A stretch of DNA of 14,646 bases from a virus (IMGVR_UViG_2718218127_000001), one strand, 5' to 3'; counted from the first letter of the stretch, positions 5,197 to 13,386 are shown. Translations and numbers: made by a program. The notes: generated from the letters alone by a model not told the origin.

Positions 5197-5495
5197 AGAT
5201 ATTTCCTCATGTAGTCACTACCTCCGGGGATAATTTTCATTTCTTCCCTTAAAGGCCACTGCTCCGCCATTGCTGCGGTCGAGTGATTCCCGTCATCACG
5301 TCCGGCCTGTGCTGCCGTCCAGTGTGTTGCATATTCTGTAAATCCAATTTCTGCTGGCTGCCTCATCCAGTGGGCGATCATCCTCAAGGTCATTTGCAGG
5401 CTTTGGGTGTCGCCCTGTAATGCGCGTTTGTCAGTAAACCCCTTCAATGCTTCACGCTCCTGATAGGTCATTTTCTGGCTGGTTTCTGTATTCAT
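5193..5495 (-). CDS. hypothetical protein, 100 aa; first gene after the origin
   Basis: Track ORF with ATG start and GAGGTG 5 nt upstream. Its stop overlaps the SSB-like start as ATGA. Confidence 0.5.
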   Translation of the reverse strand: MNTETSQKMTYQEREALKGFTDKRALQGDTQSLQMTLRMIAHWMRQPAEIGFTEYATHWTAAQAGRDDGNHSTAAMAEQWPLREEMKIIPGGSDYMRKYL

Positions 5496-5548
5496 TGCCC
5501 ACCTCGTTATAAGCTACCCCCCCCATAGAATCTTTTTGGGGGTGTAAT

Positions 5549-5800
5549 ATCCCTACCAATCCCTACTAACTGGCTCAGGCCACGAATGGCAAGGCTTTCA
5601 GACTGGTAGACATTCAATTTTGTTGCCCTACATAACCCTACTTATCCCTACTAAATCACTTCAACGGCATTTTACTGCCTGTTTTATTTGGTAGGGATAA
5701 GTAGGGATAAGTAGGGATAAAAATATATATCCCTACCTAGTTTAAAGCCTTGCTACGTCTGGCCTCGTCTCGTTTTTAGTAGGGCAGTAGGGATAAGTGC
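5549..5800. repeat. iteron-type replication origin
   Basis: At least 11 copies of a TAGGGATAAG / CCCTAC core with 10-bp phasing: inverted-orientation copies near 5549-5566 and 5626-5651, three perfect tandem GTAGGGATAA units at 5691-5720, an AT-rich stretch AAAATATATAT, then further copies near 5731 and 5779-5796. Lies immediately 3' of the primase gene. Confidence 0.7.
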
Positions 5801-5813
5801 CGCCGTAAAAGTT

Positions 5814-8255
5814 TCAATCATCACTCTGCCCGCTCTCCACACCGTAAGCGCGTGGCATGAACTCCTCAGCCTTCTCGTTATAGCCAACGTTGGTTTGCGC
5901 TCTGCCGTTAATGCTTCTCGTCAGGTAGCTGGCTCGGTACTCTTTTGCTGCTGATTTTATGGCGCGTGAAAACTTATTGACGGAAAGCGGTTTACCCAAA
6001 CCGTGATACTCCATAAACGCCAGATAAAGATGATAAAGATACGTCCTCGGCTCTGGCTGGCCTGCCCATGTACCTCCGCCCATCATCATGCCTTTGGGTT
6101 CGTTCATGAAAAAAAGCGCCGCACACATATCGACAACCGGATCCGTGCCGCGTTTAACCTCTAGCGCCTCCTGCGAATCGCGCTGCTCTAGTAATAGTGC
6201 CTTTGCTTTGTTCTGGTCGGCAAAGGTGGTTAGCAGGTGGCGGATAATCACCGGGATTTCTCGCCTGATTTTTGCGGTTAAATCCGGGTCTTTGTCTGCG
6301 TCTGATACCGGGTTATTAAACGGGAATATCACGCGGCGGCGGGCAATGCCCCCGTTTCGCTCCGTGAATGTCATTGGCTCGTTATTGGTTGCCATAACAA
6401 CGGCATTTATCACGGTTGTGAACTGCTTTTCATATTTCCCATCAATCTCTACCGGATCGCCGCCCGTAATGGCTTTAATCCCCGCACCCTCTCCAACGTA
6501 GCGGGTCTGGTCAGGCATAATAATCAGGCTTTTCCCTACGAACTGCGCCCGTCCCCGTGCGGTGTCCAGCGTCATCATGCTACCGCTGGCGGTGTTGTGT
6601 TCACCTGCCAGCGTGGTTGCTATGCTGCTGAATACGGATTTCCCACTGCCGCCCTCGCCAGTTATCTCAATGAATAGCTGCCAGTCGTGACGCTTCGCCA
6701 GCACCATAAACAAGGCTGCTTTGATACGCTCGGCCTTATGATGGTCGCCAGCCGTTGCATGATTCAGCCAACGGGTAAAATTGGGGGCGCTGGTGGAAAT
6801 ATTCTCCCCCGGCGCTGGCGGGGTGTAGGTGATCCCATTGTGGTTCATCAGCCAGTTACCCGGCGAATGGGCGGAAAACGTCTGCGTAGCGAGGTCATAA
6901 ACGCCGTTATCAAAACCAATCAGATCCCCGCTCCGCTCACCAATTACCGGTATTTGCAGCTTCATGGTTGCGACAACCGATTTAATCCCTTTTTCGGTGT
7001 AGTGGGCTTCGTGCTCGTCGAAAATTGCCACCATAACCCTTTCTAATTCGCTGTCTGGTAGCTTCACCCATACGCCAGATTCGTAGCAGTAAACAGCGCC
7101 ACTATCAGGGTTGACCGCCAACATATCCCAGCGAGATGAAAGCAACCGCGCTTTCTGGCTGGCTGCCATTTGTGCAATATCTCCGACTTCGGCTTTACGG
7201 CGGGATTTACCGCCCACAATGGCCTGTAGTTGTGGTTTCACGGCTTCCCCCTGAATCTGGTACATCGAATCGTTAAACGCAGCCGTAGCGACTTCCAGCC
7301 CGTTTTGCTGGCGGTAGTCGTCCCAGTCGGCTTTGTAGTCTGTCGGCGGCAGCGCCACCCAGCCAGCCACGGATAAGGCGGCTTTCTCTGCGGCATCTTT
7401 GCCCGTGTTCGCCTGTTCGTCCTGCTGGTGGTCGTTATCTGCGGCAATGATAATTTGCGACTGCGGGTGTTTCCGGCGCATTACTCCGGCAACGTGGATC
7501 AGGTTCCCGGCGTCAATTGCCGCCACTGTAAGCGCGTCCGGGCGCATCAGGTGAACGGACAGGGCCGTCGCCAGCCCCTCGGCAATTAATACGCTCTGCG
7601 GCTGTTCTGGTGCGTTTACGGCGTGATATGCCCCGCGCTTTGCTGAACCTGTCAGGAGTCGCTTCTCTCCCTGCGGTGTAATGGTTTGCGCTGCTGCCAC
7701 TGCGCCGGATTCGTCCACCAGCTCCAGCAATAACGAACCATCCGGCATAACCGGATAGTTAAACCCGGTCAGCCCTTTTGATTGCAGGTAATCAGATTCT
7801 CCCTGTGTGGCACTCTGGCGCATTCCGGCATACAGACGGGCAAACGTAGCCCTTCGCTGCTCTGCATCCTCTGCTGCCTGTTTCTGGCGCTCCTGCTCAC
7901 GCTGCTGGCGGTCAGCTTCCAGTTGCTCTCTTCTATGGCTCGCTGCCACCGGGTCGGTTTGCGCTGCCCGGTAATCAATACCCAGCACATCAGCGGCAAG
8001 CTGTGCCGCCTCCGTAGTGTCGCAGTTGTTCACCTTCTTAATCAGGTCTAAACCGTCACCAGCGCCACACTGATTGCAGATAAAGCTACCGCGCCCGTTG
8101 TCGTCGAATCTGAAACGGTCTTTTCCACCACATGCAGGGCATGGAGAATGGCGGCGCGATGAATCAGGCACGTCGATAGACAATCCAGCCAGCACATAAG
8201 GCCAGCGCCCGGCGGCGGCACTGGTCACTTCGCGGATAAGGTCGATATTACGCAT
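5814..8255 (-). CDS. P4-alpha-like bifunctional DNA primase/helicase, 813 aa
   Basis: Track ORF with ATG start. N-terminal zinc ribbon CPACGGKDRFRFDD...FICNQCGAGDG, a central TOPRIM-like region, and a C-terminal NTPase with Walker A GEGGSGKS. Confidence 0.88.
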   Translation of the reverse strand: MRNIDLIREVTSAAAGRWPYVLAGLSIDVPDSSRRHSPCPACGGKDRFRFDDNGRGSFICNQCGAGDGLDLIKKVNNCDTTEAAQLAADVLGIDYRAAQTDPVAASHRREQLEADRQQREQERQKQAAEDAEQRRATFARLYAGMRQSATQGESDYLQSKGLTGFNYPVMPDGSLLLELVDESGAVAAAQTITPQGEKRLLTGSAKRGAYHAVNAPEQPQSVLIAEGLATALSVHLMRPDALTVAAIDAGNLIHVAGVMRRKHPQSQIIIAADNDHQQDEQANTGKDAAEKAALSVAGWVALPPTDYKADWDDYRQQNGLEVATAAFNDSMYQIQGEAVKPQLQAIVGGKSRRKAEVGDIAQMAASQKARLLSSRWDMLAVNPDSGAVYCYESGVWVKLPDSELERVMVAIFDEHEAHYTEKGIKSVVATMKLQIPVIGERSGDLIGFDNGVYDLATQTFSAHSPGNWLMNHNGITYTPPAPGENISTSAPNFTRWLNHATAGDHHKAERIKAALFMVLAKRHDWQLFIEITGEGGSGKSVFSSIATTLAGEHNTASGSMMTLDTARGRAQFVGKSLIIMPDQTRYVGEGAGIKAITGGDPVEIDGKYEKQFTTVINAVVMATNNEPMTFTERNGGIARRRVIFPFNNPVSDADKDPDLTAKIRREIPVIIRHLLTTFADQNKAKALLLEQRDSQEALEVKRGTDPVVDMCAALFFMNEPKGMMMGGGTWAGQPEPRTYLYHLYLAFMEYHGLGKPLSVNKFSRAIKSAAKEYRASYLTRSINGRAQTNVGYNEKAEEFMPRAYGVESGQSDD

Positions 8256-8589
8256 GGTTGCCTCCTGCCACGGTCGCGCCCATGTCTTTAACCATGCTTT
8301 GCCATATCTCGCGCCCGACGTCAGTCAATCCGTCCTTAGTGACGCAACGCTCAAGAAGCTCGACCCCCACGGTTTCCCACTGCGGGTAGGACACTTTCAT
8401 GGCTGCCAGTGTGTAGCTATCGATCAGGCTGCGAACGCCTTTTACTCCATTGACGATTTCCACACGGACGGCGAGGCCGTCCGCATCAACCATGAAATAG
8501 TCCCCGCCGCTGGTGGAGGTAATGTGGTTATACAGTGCCGACGCATATTTATTAGCCAGCGCATTCAGTCGGAAATTTTTAGTAATCAT
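8248..8589 (-). CDS. hypothetical protein, 113 aa
   Basis: Track ORF with ATG start and GAGGGG upstream. Overlaps the primase start by 8 nt. Confidence 0.55.
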   Translation of the reverse strand: MITKNFRLNALANKYASALYNHITSTSGGDYFMVDADGLAVRVEIVNGVKGVRSLIDSYTLAAMKVSYPQWETVGVELLERCVTKDGLTDVGREIWQSMVKDMGATVAGGNHA

Positions 8590-8597
8590 GTCGCCCC

Positions 8598-9224
8598 TCA
8601 GTGCGGCAGCGGCATTTCAGGCCAGCCGTTTTCATCCAGTTCAGCTATAAAGCTGTTGTGAAGTTCAGCAAGCGTTTCACGTCCGAACGGGGTAAGCTCG
8701 CCGCGCTCCGTATCCAGCATCGCCTTATAAAACACAATGGCTTTTTCCGTACCCTGTTCGACGCCGTATCGCTCAATCATTGCGCCCTCGATGTTGTTCG
8801 CCATCGCCAGCCGTTCAGCAAACGGGTAAATCACCATGCCCGCATTACCATTGGAGTAAATCGCCACCTGCGATGTTGTGCCGTCAGCCTCCGTGACGGA
8901 GGTTGTGCCGTTTTCGCGCTTCATTTCAGAAACGAACTTCGCAGCAATCAGCCAGCGCCACATAGTGACGTTATGCTGCGCGGTAAAGTCGAACCAGCCA
9001 CGCGCCCCGCCATCAGCAACGGCAAAATGAATGGCGTAGCCGATATCTGGCGTATCGTCGTACTCTCCCGCATCCAGACGGCTTACAGCGCTCTCATAGG
9101 TGATAATGGCTACATGCTCATACATCCCGGCATCATTGCGGGTCATGATGTTTACGCCGTGCGGTGTGGCTTCGGCGTGTAATAAGTCGGCATTTCCCGA
9201 TTTAATGGTCGGTGCGTTGCTCAT
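8598..9224 (-). CDS. hypothetical protein, 208 aa
   Basis: Track ORF with ATG start overlapping the upstream stop (ATGA). No domain recognised. Confidence 0.55.
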   Translation of the reverse strand: MSNAPTIKSGNADLLHAEATPHGVNIMTRNDAGMYEHVAIITYESAVSRLDAGEYDDTPDIGYAIHFAVADGGARGWFDFTAQHNVTMWRWLIAAKFVSEMKRENGTTSVTEADGTTSQVAIYSNGNAGMVIYPFAERLAMANNIEGAMIERYGVEQGTEKAIVFYKAMLDTERGELTPFGRETLAELHNSFIAELDENGWPEMPLPH

Positions 9225-9484
9225 GCGCTGCCCTCCGCATCAATTCTGGCTATATCGACAATCGTCAGGACTTTACTAAGCCAGCAATACACGATTTCGG
9301 CCTGTTCATCGTTTAGTTGAGTGGCTAAATCGGTCATAACGTGAGCCAGCCCATTGCGGGCGCGGGTCATGCGTTCTGCCGTTCGGTCTGCCAGCGTAAA
9401 ATCATCCGGGTAAGCCTGCTCGCGGGATAACATCGCTTCGGCTTCCAGCTCTGCCGGGTGGCGATAGATGGTAGTTATGTTCAT
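9221..9484 (-). CDS. hypothetical acidic protein, 87 aa
   Basis: Track ORF, part of the coupled operon. Confidence 0.45.
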   Translation of the reverse strand: MNITTIYRHPAELEAEAMLSREQAYPDDFTLADRTAERMTRARNGLAHVMTDLATQLNDEQAEIVYCWLSKVLTIVDIARIDAEGSA

Positions 9485-9795
9485 TTGCCCGCCCTCCCTT
9501 TGGCTTCTTTTTCACTGATTGAGCGCAAGAATGCGGCGTTTGCAGCGCTATCGTTCAGCGCCCGCGCAACTTCTCCGATATGTCCCAGCATTGCGCCTAA
9601 TCTGTACATATCAGCCCTAACGCTTTCCGCCGGGTAGTCATCGCTATTAGCCGCCCAGAACATGAGGCTACCGATGGCACTTACGCCCAGCATTAAATCA
9701 TTCACGGCATCACTGGCGCGGCTCTCAATTCCGTTCAGATCATCAGGTGTACAACCATCAAAGTCGCAGGACACTAAATCGTTATACAGGCTCAT
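9481..9795 (-). CDS. hypothetical protein, 104 aa
   Basis: Track ORF with ATG start overlapping the upstream stop (ATGA). Confidence 0.45.
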   Translation of the reverse strand: MSLYNDLVSCDFDGCTPDDLNGIESRASDAVNDLMLGVSAIGSLMFWAANSDDYPAESVRADMYRLGAMLGHIGEVARALNDSAANAAFLRSISEKEAKGRAGK

Positions 9796-9971
9796 GCTGC
9801 CACCTCACGAACGCGGGTAATCTGGATGTGGGAAAGGCGTTCATTTCTGGCCTGATTTAGCGCCTCAGCTTTGGCGCTGATCGCGCTGCGGGCGTCAACG
9901 ATATAAACGAACTCGACTAATTCGCCGCTCCGGGCGGTGGCGCATCCTGCAACACGGAAGTAATTAAGCAT
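9792..9971 (-). CDS. hypothetical small protein, about 59 aa from the internal ATG
   Basis: Track ORF 9792..10001 begins with TTG. The internal ATG (MLNYF...) has AGGGGG upstream and overlaps the preceding stop by 8 nt. Confidence 0.35.
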   Translation of the reverse strand: MLNYFRVAGCATARSGELVEFVYIVDARSAISAKAEALNQARNERLSHIQITRVREVAA

Positions 9972-10155
9972 GTGCGCCCCCTGTGCGAATACGTCCGGCA
10001 AAAAAGCAAACGTGATCCCGCGCCAGAATGCGGCGGGCTTCCTGCTCAGTCTCTGCGGCGATATGGTGAATTTTGGCGGTAATTGTCGGCATATCGCGGC
10101 GAACTGCTGCGATAATCCAGATAAATTGCGGTTTTTGGGTAGGGGTAGTAGCCAT
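9964..10155 (-). CDS. hypothetical small protein, 63 aa; first gene of the replication-module operon
   Basis: C-terminal part of the track's 250-aa GTG ORF. It has an ATG with a strong AAGGAGG 8 nt upstream (MATTPTQKPQ...). Confidence 0.45.
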   Translation of the reverse strand: MATTPTQKPQFIWIIAAVRRDMPTITAKIHHIAAETEQEARRILARDHVCFFAGRIRTGGAHA

Positions 10156-10182
10156 TATGGCAGCCTCCTTTGTGTTTAAGGA

Positions 10183-10221
10183 GTCACCGCCTGAGTTTCC
10201 ACGCTCTGAAATGGCGGTGAC
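10183..10221 (-). promoter_or_regulatory. stem-loop in the 5' leader of the replication-module operon
   Basis: Inverted repeat GTCACCGCC ... GGCGGTGAC (9-bp arms, about 21-nt loop). On the minus strand it is followed by TCCTT, which could pair with the AAGGAGG of the 63-aa gene. Confidence 0.3.
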
Positions 10222-10345
10222 GTTAGCAGGGGTGGAAATACCGGACACAAAGGAAACCGGCCTACGCGAACGTAGCCCCACTAACGCCACCATAGATACA
10301 GTACGGACGAGGCCGCTGATTTGATGTGCGTAGTGATCGGACACA

Positions 10346-10367
10346 AAAAAAGACGCTTTCGGCGTCT
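10346..10367 (-). terminator. putative rho-independent terminator on the minus strand
   Basis: Minus strand reads AGACGC-CGAAA-GCGTCT followed by TTTTTTT. It sits between the regulatory module and the replication module. Confidence 0.45.
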
Positions 10368-10654
10368 GTGTCGCCCTTAGTGTGTTCGGGTTTCCACGCC
10401 CGGTTGCTGATTTTGCAGCAACGCTTGGACTATAACAGCTTTTCTCTGCTAGGTGGTCATACCAGATAAAACCGTAACCCTTTAAGAGTTTTTCCTGTGC
10501 ACGGCTCACCATCTTTTTGTTGAGGGTAAGCGCCTCGCGTACTGGTAACGGAACTCCGGGCGCTGCGGTATCAATATCAGGTTTTGTAAGGTTGCAGATG
10601 TCAACTTTTGACAACATGCCAGCCAGATTAAAGGCTTCTTTCTGGGCGGCAGGT

Positions 10655-10837
10655 TCATTCAGTATCACGGCGCACCTCCACGAACTCATTAACGAATCTC
10701 TCCAAAGGCTGAACACATGGCGACTGATAGCCCTCGCGGTAAAAGGTCACTCGGTTATGCTCGACGCGCTGTACGGTCACTACAGCCCCGTGACTGTCCT
10801 TGTAACGGCTTCCCGGCATCGGATTATGGTTACGCAT
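10655..10837 (-). CDS. hypothetical small protein, 60 aa
   Basis: Track ORF with ATG start and GGAGGT 6 nt upstream. Overlaps the upstream stop by 8 nt. Confidence 0.5.
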   Translation of the reverse strand: MRNHNPMPGSRYKDSHGAVVTVQRVEHNRVTFYREGYQSPCVQPLERFVNEFVEVRRDTE

Positions 10838-11663
10838 GGTTTACCTCCAGACGTTTAGCGAGCCAGCGCTGAGAGAGGCGGATTAGCTCGGCTTTACGCA
10901 GGTCATATCCCATACCCATATCAATTAACGTGATATTGGTGCTTTCGAGATAGGCGAGGTGTTCAAGCTGTGCTGCGTTCATGCTGTCCCGTGGTTCGCC
11001 AGTAATGCCATTTGCCTGCGCCCACTGCTTCGCCGTCATGCCACCCAGCACGATACGGGCGATCATGTTGCTCTCGTTGCTGTAGTGGCGCTGCTGCGTC
11101 GTTTTACCCTGCTCGGCACGGGCCATATTCAGCGCATCGCACATTGGCTTAAAGTTGTTTGCGGCACTGATACGGGCTTTTAGCTGGCGACGATAGCGGG
11201 CGGCGATTTCAGGCACGCTACGCTGTAATTCTTCCTCGCACTGGATGAAATAACGGCGGATAGCGCGGCCCTGTTCGGTGCGTTCGACCATCGCCAGTTC
11301 TTTCGCCATTCCGACACTTAACAGATAGTCTTTGCCGGGTCTGCCAGACTGTTTAATCTTGCTGTAAGCCGCGCCATTCGGGCTTTTCCCCAGATTTGGG
11401 GAAATTGTTTTATGGACTGAGTAATCGTGCCCAATGGTGAAGTCATATTCAGAGATGCGATCAGCGATCCATGTAGAGAAGTCTTTTCCCACGCCCAACG
11501 CTTTGTGTAACGCTTTTGCGCTAACAATATTGGTTTCACGCCCACCGATATGACCAGGAATAACCGGGACAATTGTGGCAAATTCATTACCGTTAATTGT
11601 TCCCTGATAGGCGTTCAGATGAGGGGCGGCCTCAGAAATTAATCTGCTTTTTTCGATGTTCAT
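10830..11663 (-). CDS. phage antirepressor-like regulatory protein (AntA/KilAC-like), 277 aa
   Basis: Track ORF with ATG start and GGAGA upstream. The segment DYLLSVGMAKELAMVERTEQGRAIRRYFIQCEEEL resembles phage antirepressor / Bro-KilA type proteins; this assignment is from memory. Confidence 0.45.
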   Translation of the reverse strand: MNIEKSRLISEAAPHLNAYQGTINGNEFATIVPVIPGHIGGRETNIVSAKALHKALGVGKDFSTWIADRISEYDFTIGHDYSVHKTISPNLGKSPNGAAYSKIKQSGRPGKDYLLSVGMAKELAMVERTEQGRAIRRYFIQCEEELQRSVPEIAARYRRQLKARISAANNFKPMCDALNMARAEQGKTTQQRHYSNESNMIARIVLGGMTAKQWAQANGITGEPRDSMNAAQLEHLAYLESTNITLIDMGMGYDLRKAELIRLSQRWLAKRLEVNHA

Positions 11664-13271: not shown

Positions 13272-13386
13272 TGCGTCACCTTTCACGCTACGCCTTAATG
13301 AGCGATTGAGTCAGGCGGTAAGGCTTCCCGCTTTTCACCCCGTCGGGCTAGACTCAATCTGTCCTCTGATTCTTTACATATCTTGG

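Follow-up and report, generated by a model that had tools for sequence, protein, structure and literature searches.

The regulatory design built from C4 RNA, icd and eta goes back to work on P1 and P4 during the 1990s. The left operon of P4 runs, in order, through PLL, vis/alpA, PLE, seqA, the CI RNA, kil nested in eta, epsilon, orf151 and ORF106 (presumably cnr) to alpha. A constitutive promoter lies inside the P4 eta frame, and its transcript is quickly terminated through interactions of the CI and seqA RNAs and yields CI RNA; Kil is a truncated product of eta, full-length Eta is translated only from the upstream late promoter, coupled to the alpA homologue, and its translation prevents termination and gives read-through into the downstream genes (PMC10111431). 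The Rfam models C4 and isrK detect relatives of CI and seqA and match several Gram-negative phage-inducible chromosomal islands (GN-PICIs) (PMC10111431). Such islands, of the EcCICFT073 type, are described as four zones (Integration, Bro, Replication and Late), and Icd-like proteins have been reported in most Enterobacter satellites (PMC6092414, PMC10111431). In the isrK-orf45-anrP locus of Salmonella Gifsy-1, experiments showed that the downstream gene depends for its expression on translation of a short open reading frame (ORF) (PMC4825925). Here, we compare these systems with a chain of six small genes that leads into a primase gene in a stretch of viral DNA of 14,646 nucleotides (nt), IMGVR_UViG_2718218127_000001, which at its full length we call the window.

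An initial annotation of this DNA had noticed ORFs of 63, about 59, 104, 87, 208 and 113 amino acids (aa) running head-to-tail into the primase gene. All six are present on the minus strand, which carries all genes of the window, and we confirm them as genuine genes at the head of the replication operon of a P4/PICI-type phage satellite. What the annotation had missed is a putative antisense-RNA switch on the first ribosome-binding site together with a nested eta-like ORF, and these two features would explain the head-to-tail arrangement. By analogy with P4 and P1, we consider it likely that the locus is an RNA-gated, translation-coupled early operon of a tRNA-integrating satellite island. Its correspondence to the P4 early operon, at first proposed from position, is now raised to homology for four parts (the leader RNAs, ORF63, the primase and, remotely, ORF208).

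RNA elements and the long frame of the leader

A primase scan with one genome per species gave 76 loci, and four further E. coli islands were added for substitution patterns; the comparisons below refer to 18 related loci that span E. coli, Kluyvera, Buttiauxella, Rosenbergiella, Tatumella, Serratia, Proteus and others. The leader is the stretch between a DUF4222 gene (10837..10655) and ORF63 (10155..9964), the first gene after an internal promoter that we place by inference. It carries an isrK/c4-a1b1 element (10435..10346 by Rfam), the equivalent of P4 seqA, in which c4-a1b1 (RF03163, 10435..10383) scores 55.1 bits against a gathering score of 46.7 and isrK (10422..10346) scores 72 bits against 50. 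An intrinsic terminator hairpin with its T run, located at 10367..10351 by a terminator scan, ends isrK. Downstream lies a C4/CI-type antisense RNA (RF01695, 10297..10210), matched over its full length (model positions 1-87) with 81.1 bits against a gathering score of 45. All of these features are on the minus strand, as is a candidate -10 box (TATAGT, 10434..10429) that was read by eye and that would belong to a promoter analogous to P51b of P1.

The predicted targets of the antisense RNA lie on the same transcript. The single-stranded a' segment (UUUCCAC, 10238..10232) matches GUGGAAA over 7 nt both upstream, where the match to a1 (GTGGAAA, 10397..10391) is perfect, and downstream, at a2 (GTGGAAA, 10202..10196). 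The b' loop of the C4 hairpin (UUUCCUUUGUGU, 10256..10245) has 12 nt of complementarity to b2 (ACACAAAGGAGG, 10175..10164), and b2 includes the Shine-Dalgarno sequence of ORF63, AGGAGG, 8 nt upstream of the ATG at 10155; b1 lies at ~10385..10374. These pairings co-vary, with 10 different b' loops and at least five a' tails in 17 loci, each accompanied by its own matching b2 and a1/a2, and the mean predicted duplex energy is -27.9 kcal/mol for cognate pairs versus -17.0 kcal/mol for non-cognate ones. C4 and isrK also stand directly upstream of icd in six of the 18 related loci, as judged by an Rfam scan. When positions 10150-10425 of the window are folded alone, a1/b1 pair in cis with a'/b' of C4 (minimum free energy -107.8 kcal/mol, z = -4.1), a fold reminiscent of 'structure A', the inactive form reported for the isrK-orf45 RNA of Gifsy-1.

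Upstream of isrK, related loci contain small hairpins and short direct repeats (ACTACGCGAGG / AGTACGCGCAC) of variable copy number. Repeats of this type lie ~300-450 nt upstream of icd in the leaders of four loci (L002, L003, L049 and L054) and at ~10520-10545 in the window, and they may be operator or protein-binding sites within the eta-like frame.

ORF63 is the 3' end of this much longer eta-like ORF (10689..9964, minus strand), which has 241 aa from ATG 10689 and is open from GTG 10716. The frame (241-250 codons) crosses isrK, C4 and a2/b2 and ends as ORF63. Its start is probably ATG 10689, which puts its first 35 nt within the end of the DUF4222 gene; in related loci the corresponding ORF usually begins with an overlap of 1-8 nt with the upstream gene. 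In the window, 207 codons of the icd frame stay open ahead of the Icd motif, versus 10 and 20 in the two alternative frames, and across the 18 loci 185-333 codons stay open versus 1-42, with indels in the spacer between C4 and icd that compensate to multiples of three. The frame is conserved as open while its amino-acid sequence is not, and the translation across the RNA genes looks non-protein-like. The annotation pipeline PGAP calls a long coding sequence (CDS; ~235-355 aa) named 'Icd-like' or 'ash family' across the RNA genes in homologous loci. We took this long ORF at one point for an overcall and later for an unexplained anomaly, and dropped both views because the icd frame is open in all 18 loci and the other frames close early; the arrangement is that of eta and kil in P4.

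The Pfam family Phage_ASH (PF10554, 'Ash protein family') matches the eta-frame translation of the a1b1/isrK-C4-a2b2 region (residues 86-186 of the eta-like ORF, 10132-10434 in the window), and it matches the same RNA region of P4 (~8420-8705). Genuine P4 epsilon belongs to a different family (PF25738), and PF10554 has served as the epsilon marker in a survey of P4-like elements (PMC8628076). It follows that 'ash/epsilon' calls in surveys may mark the immunity-RNA leader. The annotation of E. coli B18271 (L081, 2154-2660) treats the eta-like frame as an interrupted 'ash family' pseudogene and lists icd as a gene of its own with 64 aa, a natural case of an apparently decayed long frame.

ORF63 itself matches the Icd-like family NF033153 (phage_ICD_like) with 73.5 bits against a cut-off of 25 (E = 1e-20), and it shares 41% identity with the C-terminal end of the P4 eta frame, that is, with Kil, and 30% with P1 Icd (E = 3e-8); a tblastn search of the phage collection gave no match at E = 1e-3. 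Judged by these similarities, ORF63 is a homologue of the host cell-division inhibitors and killers. The early operon had been expected to hold both kil and epsilon; kil is there in the form of ORF63, but none of the six ORFs matches P4 epsilon (PF25738) at E<=1 or shows blastp similarity to it. Similarity to P4 ORF151 was likewise lacking in all six.

Six small genes ahead of the primase

The chain continues from ORF63 through ORF59 (9971..9792), ORF104 (9795..9481), ORF87 (9484..9221), ORF208 (9224..8598) and ORF113 (8589..8248) to a P4 alpha-type primase-helicase of 813 aa (8255..5814), the last gene, all on the minus strand. Stop/start overlaps of ATGA or 8 nt had been noted at nearly every junction, and five of the six junctions bear this out: ORF63 overlaps ORF59 by 8 nt (ATGCTTAA), the junctions ORF59/ORF104, ORF104/ORF87 and ORF87/ORF208 are ATGA (-4 nt each), and ORF113 overlaps the primase by 8 nt (-8). 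The remaining one, ORF208/ORF113, is a gap of 8 nt (+8) with no overlap. A G-rich Shine-Dalgarno-like motif lies no more than 25 nt upstream of every start codon. Packing is equally tight between icd and the primase of the 18 related loci, where nearly all neighbours meet at -1, -4, -8 or -11 nt or leave a space of a few nt, which shows that the arrangement of the ORFs is more than chance.

Substitution patterns in homologues were informative for most of the chain. ORF63, ORF87, ORF208 and ORF113 show an excess of third-position substitutions, in agreement with the reading-frame conservation that genuine genes should have, and the ratios of non-synonymous to synonymous change (pN/pS ~0.1-0.2 for ORF63; dN/dS 0.13-0.23 for ORF87, 0.15-0.32 for ORF208 and 0.10-0.36 for ORF113) indicate that these four are under purifying selection. 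Among near-identical E. coli islands, ORF104 has pN 0.049 versus pS 0.015, with 10 amino-acid changes versus about one synonymous change, while the neighbouring ORF59 does not vary; this may reflect diversifying selection in a small sample, and the 13 substitutions are too few to claim positive selection. Distant homologues of ORF104 have the same length (26-32% identity), and the protein matches phrog_6805 (E = 4e-15). Coding support, as read from substitutions and homologues, is weakest for ORF59, for which an alternative version of 69 aa from a TTG start is also open. Copies of ORF59 in E. coli differ by three synonymous changes and one non-synonymous change, and the protein is nearly invariant across E. 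coli, Klebsiella and Enterobacter; it has a single 35%-identical homologue in the same position in Tatumella, and 1.84 billion proteins contain eight representatives, some of them fused in frame to eta/icd.

The 1.9-kb block of ORFs has a partial match in 518 of 5426 E. coli genomes and is covered to at least 80% in just 34, most of the remaining matches being to the first ORF only. When we compared the gene content of the slot across related islands, as the initial annotation had suggested, we found that cassettes swap while tight junctions are kept in the 18 loci. Each locus has 2-9 small ORFs from many distinct families. ORF208 and/or ORF113 stand directly before the primase in 16 of the 18, the other two being Proteus loci (L023 and L025) that have ORF104 there instead, and wherever ORF113 is present, its stop and the primase start share an 8-nt overlap. 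The middle of the slot is filled by interchangeable families of 55-105 aa that look helical from sequence alone. E. coli B18271 is without exactly ORF104, and the ATGA junction is re-formed; E. coli SEV4 and S1-INA-02-B are without exactly ORF208. Yet another island carries Icd, a 64-aa ORF, ORF87, a 73-aa ORF, ORF208, ORF113, a 123-aa ORF and the primase. The clean single-gene variants mean that the genes are individually dispensable cassettes and that the coupled architecture is the conserved part. ORF59, ORF104, ORF87 and ORF113 are, on this comparative evidence, real small proteins that are exchanged between islands as cassettes.

The initial annotation had been able to name no domain in any of the six products, which holds for ORF59, ORF104, ORF87 and ORF113, fails for ORF63 and is only partly right for ORF208. 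The profile- and structure-based searches that it had proposed returned Icd and the remote link to P4 ORF106, and no functional match for the rest. Across Pfam, NCBIfam, PHROG and PADLOC, the six ORFs matched Icd as the only named family and otherwise unnamed PHROG families; ORF113, ORF104, ORF87 and ORF59 had no informative match in Pfam, NCBIfam or PADLOC, and ORF59 had none in PHROG either. Profile and sequence searches of PDB sequences with ORF208, ORF113, ORF104, ORF87 and ORF63 gave nothing below E = 0.1. ORF104 and ORF87 are small, helical-looking proteins, ORF87 being linked to a second slot family (F16/f20; E ~1e-5 to F16), and ORF113 is a small alpha/beta protein. The AlphaFold2 model of ORF113 has a mean predicted local distance difference test (pLDDT) score of 93 and a predicted template modelling (pTM) score of 0.85, and it has no fold match in PDB. 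A similar order of secondary-structure elements had made us consider ORF113 and the C-terminal half of ORF208 as paralogues, but hhalign found no similarity between them, nor between ORF113 and P4 ORF106. RefSeq/PGAP names without domain support, concerning L001 and L083 as well as the window, are attached to ORF87 ('nicotinic acetylcholine receptor subunit beta') and to ORF104 ('ubiquinol-cytochrome C reductase') and are misleading.

ORF208 is a two-part protein, with a beta-rich N-terminal part (residues ~15-80) and a C-terminal part (~85-194) remotely homologous to P4 ORF106 (DUF5375). It has a match to phrog_1515 (E = 6e-48) and a weak one to phrog_5991 (E = 5.5e-4), the PHROG family that contains P4 ORF106 (Pfam DUF5375, PF17345). 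Short members of the ORF208 family hit P4 ORF106 by blastp (E = 2.4e-4), ~30 listed members of the family carry PF17345, and hhalign aligns P4 ORF106 (10-101) with the ORF208 family profile (ORF208 85-194) at a probability of 84% (E = 7.9e-6). The AlphaFold2 model of ORF208 (pLDDT 90, pTM 0.85) found no match in a fold search, in line with the search of PDB sequences. P4 ORF106, still named 'Uncharacterized protein ORF106' in UniProt, is the protein that we take to be Cnr, which reportedly regulates copy number by binding the DNA-binding domain of alpha. In P4-like elements, cnr lies between epsilon and alpha, and its family is found in 90% of them (PMC8628076). Through its ORF106-related domain, ORF208 probably modulates the replication initiator. 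Homologues of ORF208 (~33% identity) occur in phiP27 and in Shiga toxin (Stx)-converting temperate lambdoid phages; in phiP27 (NC_003356, 4420-5058) the gene lies in the early-left region, between regulatory genes and xis/int. An Enterobacter island (L065, 5489-6654) has two tandem ORF208 paralogues (187 aa with 26% identity and 196 aa with 69% identity) before ORF113 and the primase.

The primase at the end of the chain shares 38.5% identity with P4 alpha across 812 aa (E = 3e-173) and contains the Pfam domains Zn_Ribbon_Prim, Toprim_3, D5_N, DUF5906 and Pox_D5. In the 318-nt intergenic region just 3' of its stop, a 10-bp iteron (TATCCCTAC / GTAGGGATA) forms a cluster of at least 12 copies in both orientations (5547..5798), many of them at 10-bp phasing and with an 80-nt imperfect palindrome among them. 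From this arrangement, the cluster is a likely candidate for the replication origin. The iteron block also accounts for spurious Rfam MIR5070 matches on both strands.

Proposed regulation and roles of the small proteins

We propose that the operon is gated by one RNA switch, of the kind known from P1 immI and P4 immunity. Promoter use, RNA processing, Rho termination, translational coupling and all protein functions are here inferred by analogy: the repressed state follows from homology with P1 and P4, the induced state from P4 eta, and coupling also from Gifsy-1. In the repressed state, a constitutive promoter within the leader would give the short isrK-like RNA and a read-through precursor of the C4/CI antisense RNA. 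Mature C4 would pair through a'/b' with a2/b2 of the same mRNA, the pairing at b2 would occlude the Shine-Dalgarno sequence of ORF63 and leave ORF63 untranslated, and the untranslated transcript would be terminated early by Rho. ORF59 to ORF113 and the primase would then not be made, because each start lies within a few bases of the preceding stop; when ORF63 is translated, the same stop/start overlaps would hand translation down the chain to the primase. In the induced state, transcription would arrive from an upstream alpA-antA promoter, and ribosomes on the long in-frame ORF, begun before the internal promoter, would cross isrK, C4 and a2/b2 into icd. Since these ribosomes would keep the RNA covered, immunity would be bypassed and the whole chain through the primase expressed.

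Several observations weigh against this account. A promoter scan of 5400-11000 found no consensus sigma-70 site, b1 is imperfect in the window (a 5+4 match with a bulge), and the coding strand of the operon is G-rich, not C-rich, which leaves no obvious rut-like region for Rho loading. ORF208 and ORF104 are each cleanly absent from natural E. coli variants, so that neither is essential for expression of the primase. The isrK locus of Gifsy-1 uses a trans-acting small RNA (sRNA) that activates, and the direction of regulation should therefore not be taken for granted. For the part assigned to ORF208, Pfam DUF5375 does not match ORF208 itself and the link to P4 ORF106 is remote; moreover, the phiP27 stretch with the ORF208 homologue has no annotated primase, which calls for caution about a strictly primase-specific role.

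As to the purpose of the slot, we suggest only tentatively that it is a translation-coupled cassette array of private small effectors, released together by a heteroimmune RNA switch. If so, ORF208 (an N-terminally extended relative of P4 ORF106) and ORF113 would be new folds, and ORF104, ORF87, ORF59 and their alternates (60-90-aa helical proteins of the F8/F16/F18 type) would include new anti-helper, anti-defence or host-takeover proteins. A related possibility, which we also hold to be rather doubtful, is that the small proteins after Icd (ORF59, ORF104, ORF87, ORF113 and perhaps ORF208) are effectors against helper or host and that the coupling merely co-expresses them early. Members of the ORF63 family in P1 and P4 block cell division or kill the cell, the slot is a hotspot for cassettes with the exact gain and loss of single genes typical of arms-race loci, relatives of ORF208 lie in the early-left regions of lambdoid Stx phages and phiP27, and the confident folds of ORF208 and ORF113 match nothing known. 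The excess of pN over pS in ORF104 among near-identical islands points in the same direction, although it is not significant by a rough estimate given its 13 substitutions, and ORF87, ORF208 and ORF113 are under ordinary purifying selection. None of these proteins resembles P4 epsilon, P4 ORF151, any antirepressor or any PADLOC family, and the recognisable domain of ORF208 is related to P4 ORF106, taken here as a replication regulator and not as a helper-directed protein.

That relationship is one argument for another role, in which ORF208, ORF113 and possibly others would be accessory replication proteins that tune the primase-helicase at the iteron origin, as Cnr would in P4. The alignment of ORF208 85-194 with P4 ORF106, the position of ORF208 and/or ORF113 next to the primase in 16 of 18 loci, the constant 8-nt overlap of ORF113 with the primase start, the iterons just downstream of the primase and the prevalence of the cnr family between epsilon and alpha in P4-like elements all fit such a role. 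We nonetheless regard it as somewhat improbable, given that ORF208 and ORF113 are each missing from some intact-looking islands, that ORF113 resembles neither ORF106 nor ORF208, that phages have homologues of ORF208 in a region where the stretch inspected carries no annotated primase, and that P4 ORF106, here presumed to be Cnr, is listed as uncharacterised in UniProt. Most unlikely, in our judgement, is that some of the ORFs, chiefly ORF59, matter solely by being translated and so keep Rho off, their products being irrelevant. The eta-like leader is a precedent in the same operon, where the frame is kept and the amino acids are not; ORF59 is almost without family, and ORF104 shows no purifying selection among close copies. 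Yet dN/dS is 0.1-0.36 for ORF87, ORF208, ORF113 and icd, ORF208 and ORF113 have high-confidence predicted folds, ORF104 is conserved among distant homologues and falls in a PHROG family, and the ORF59 protein hardly varies between three genera. We retain the RNA-gated, translation-coupled early operon as the likely framework within which any of these roles would be played.

If this framework is right, the locus shows that one small antisense RNA would be able to gate the whole replication operon of a phage satellite, and the 10 loop/target specificities would make a natural set of orthogonal RNA switches. ORF208, ORF113, ORF104 and ORF87 become candidates for replication control or for interference with helper or host when the satellite wakes. 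Database labels can also be corrected, namely 'ash family protein', the long 'Icd-like' CDSs (the eta frame over RNA genes) and the names of ORF87 and ORF104.

The island and its relation to known systems

Genes of the window are ordered as tyrosine integrase, AlpA, an AntA/DUF4222 'Bro zone' (with the AntA-domain gene at 11663..10830, ahead of the leader), leader and operon, primase, iterons and SSB. In E. coli PC6, a closely related island directly adjoins tRNA-Thr, with proA alongside. Judged from its genes, the element is a GN-PICI-like island with a P4-type replication and immunity core. Its late zone has no recognisable morphogenesis or redirecting genes. Psu and delta/Ogr domains were not found by Pfam in the other window ORFs tested, and neither was Sid, for which no Pfam model exists and no specific search was made. 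The Rfam int-alpA RNA motif is present at 13292-13358 (57 bits against a gathering score of 35.8), between the integrase and a 286-aa ORF, and is also found in many related loci. In Photorhabdus asymbiotica (L029, 12995-13442), a CRISPR array of eight repeats (Rfam CRISPR-DR4) lies ~3.5 kb downstream of a P4-type primase locus.

The likeness to P4 is extensive. Rfam finds C4, isrK and c4-a1b1 in P4 too, at its CI/seqA region and in the same order, the Kil/Icd homologue closes a long in-frame ORF whose start lies ahead of the RNA genes (in P4, the historical 137-aa 'cI' ORF plus 79 further open codons), small ORFs with stop/start overlaps run into an alpha-type primase, a gene with a remotely ORF106/DUF5375-like domain (ORF208) lies near that primase, and an AlpA-type gene stands upstream. 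Unlike P4, the window has no epsilon or orf151 homologue among the six ORFs and none of the sid/psu/delta domains just mentioned, and the middle of its slot is occupied by unrelated small families (ORF59, ORF104, ORF87 and ORF113). Its ORF106-like domain follows an additional N-terminal domain in the same protein, AntA and DUF4222 genes are placed between alpA and the leader, and an SSB gene and the iteron block follow the primase.

With the immI region of P1/P7 the locus shares a full-length C4, a1/b1 upstream and a2/b2 downstream, with b2 on the ribosome-binding site of icd, and the existence of heteroimmune loop/target variants as between P1 and P7. As in P1, the first gene is of the Icd family and overlaps the next, by 8 nt in the window and by ATGA in P1, where the annotated record has icd overlapping ant1 and describes icd as 'apparently required for expression of ant'. 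In contrast to P1, the cargo after icd consists of five small ORFs and the primase, not of the Ant antirepressor, the AntA-domain gene being upstream; the eta-like frame is open for 207 codons versus 11 in P1; and an isrK-type intrinsic terminator separates a1/b1 from C4. Gifsy-1 resembles the window in that its isrK-type RNA carries a terminator, transcription reads through into a short ORF, and the stop of that ORF overlaps the next start (PMC4825925). The two differ in that the short sRNA of Gifsy-1 acts in trans as an activator and its cargo is an antirepressor (PMC4825925), whereas the leader of the window has a canonical C4 with covarying targets and its cargo is a replication operon.

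In gene order, finally, the window follows the GN-PICIs, with int, alpA, Bro-network genes (AntA and Phage_ASH/eta), a primase with DUF5906, and SSB. The architecture is already known in kind and has been noted in PICIs, and current understanding is not overturned; the novelty of this locus lies in its uncharacterised cassette proteins, above all ORF208 and ORF113.

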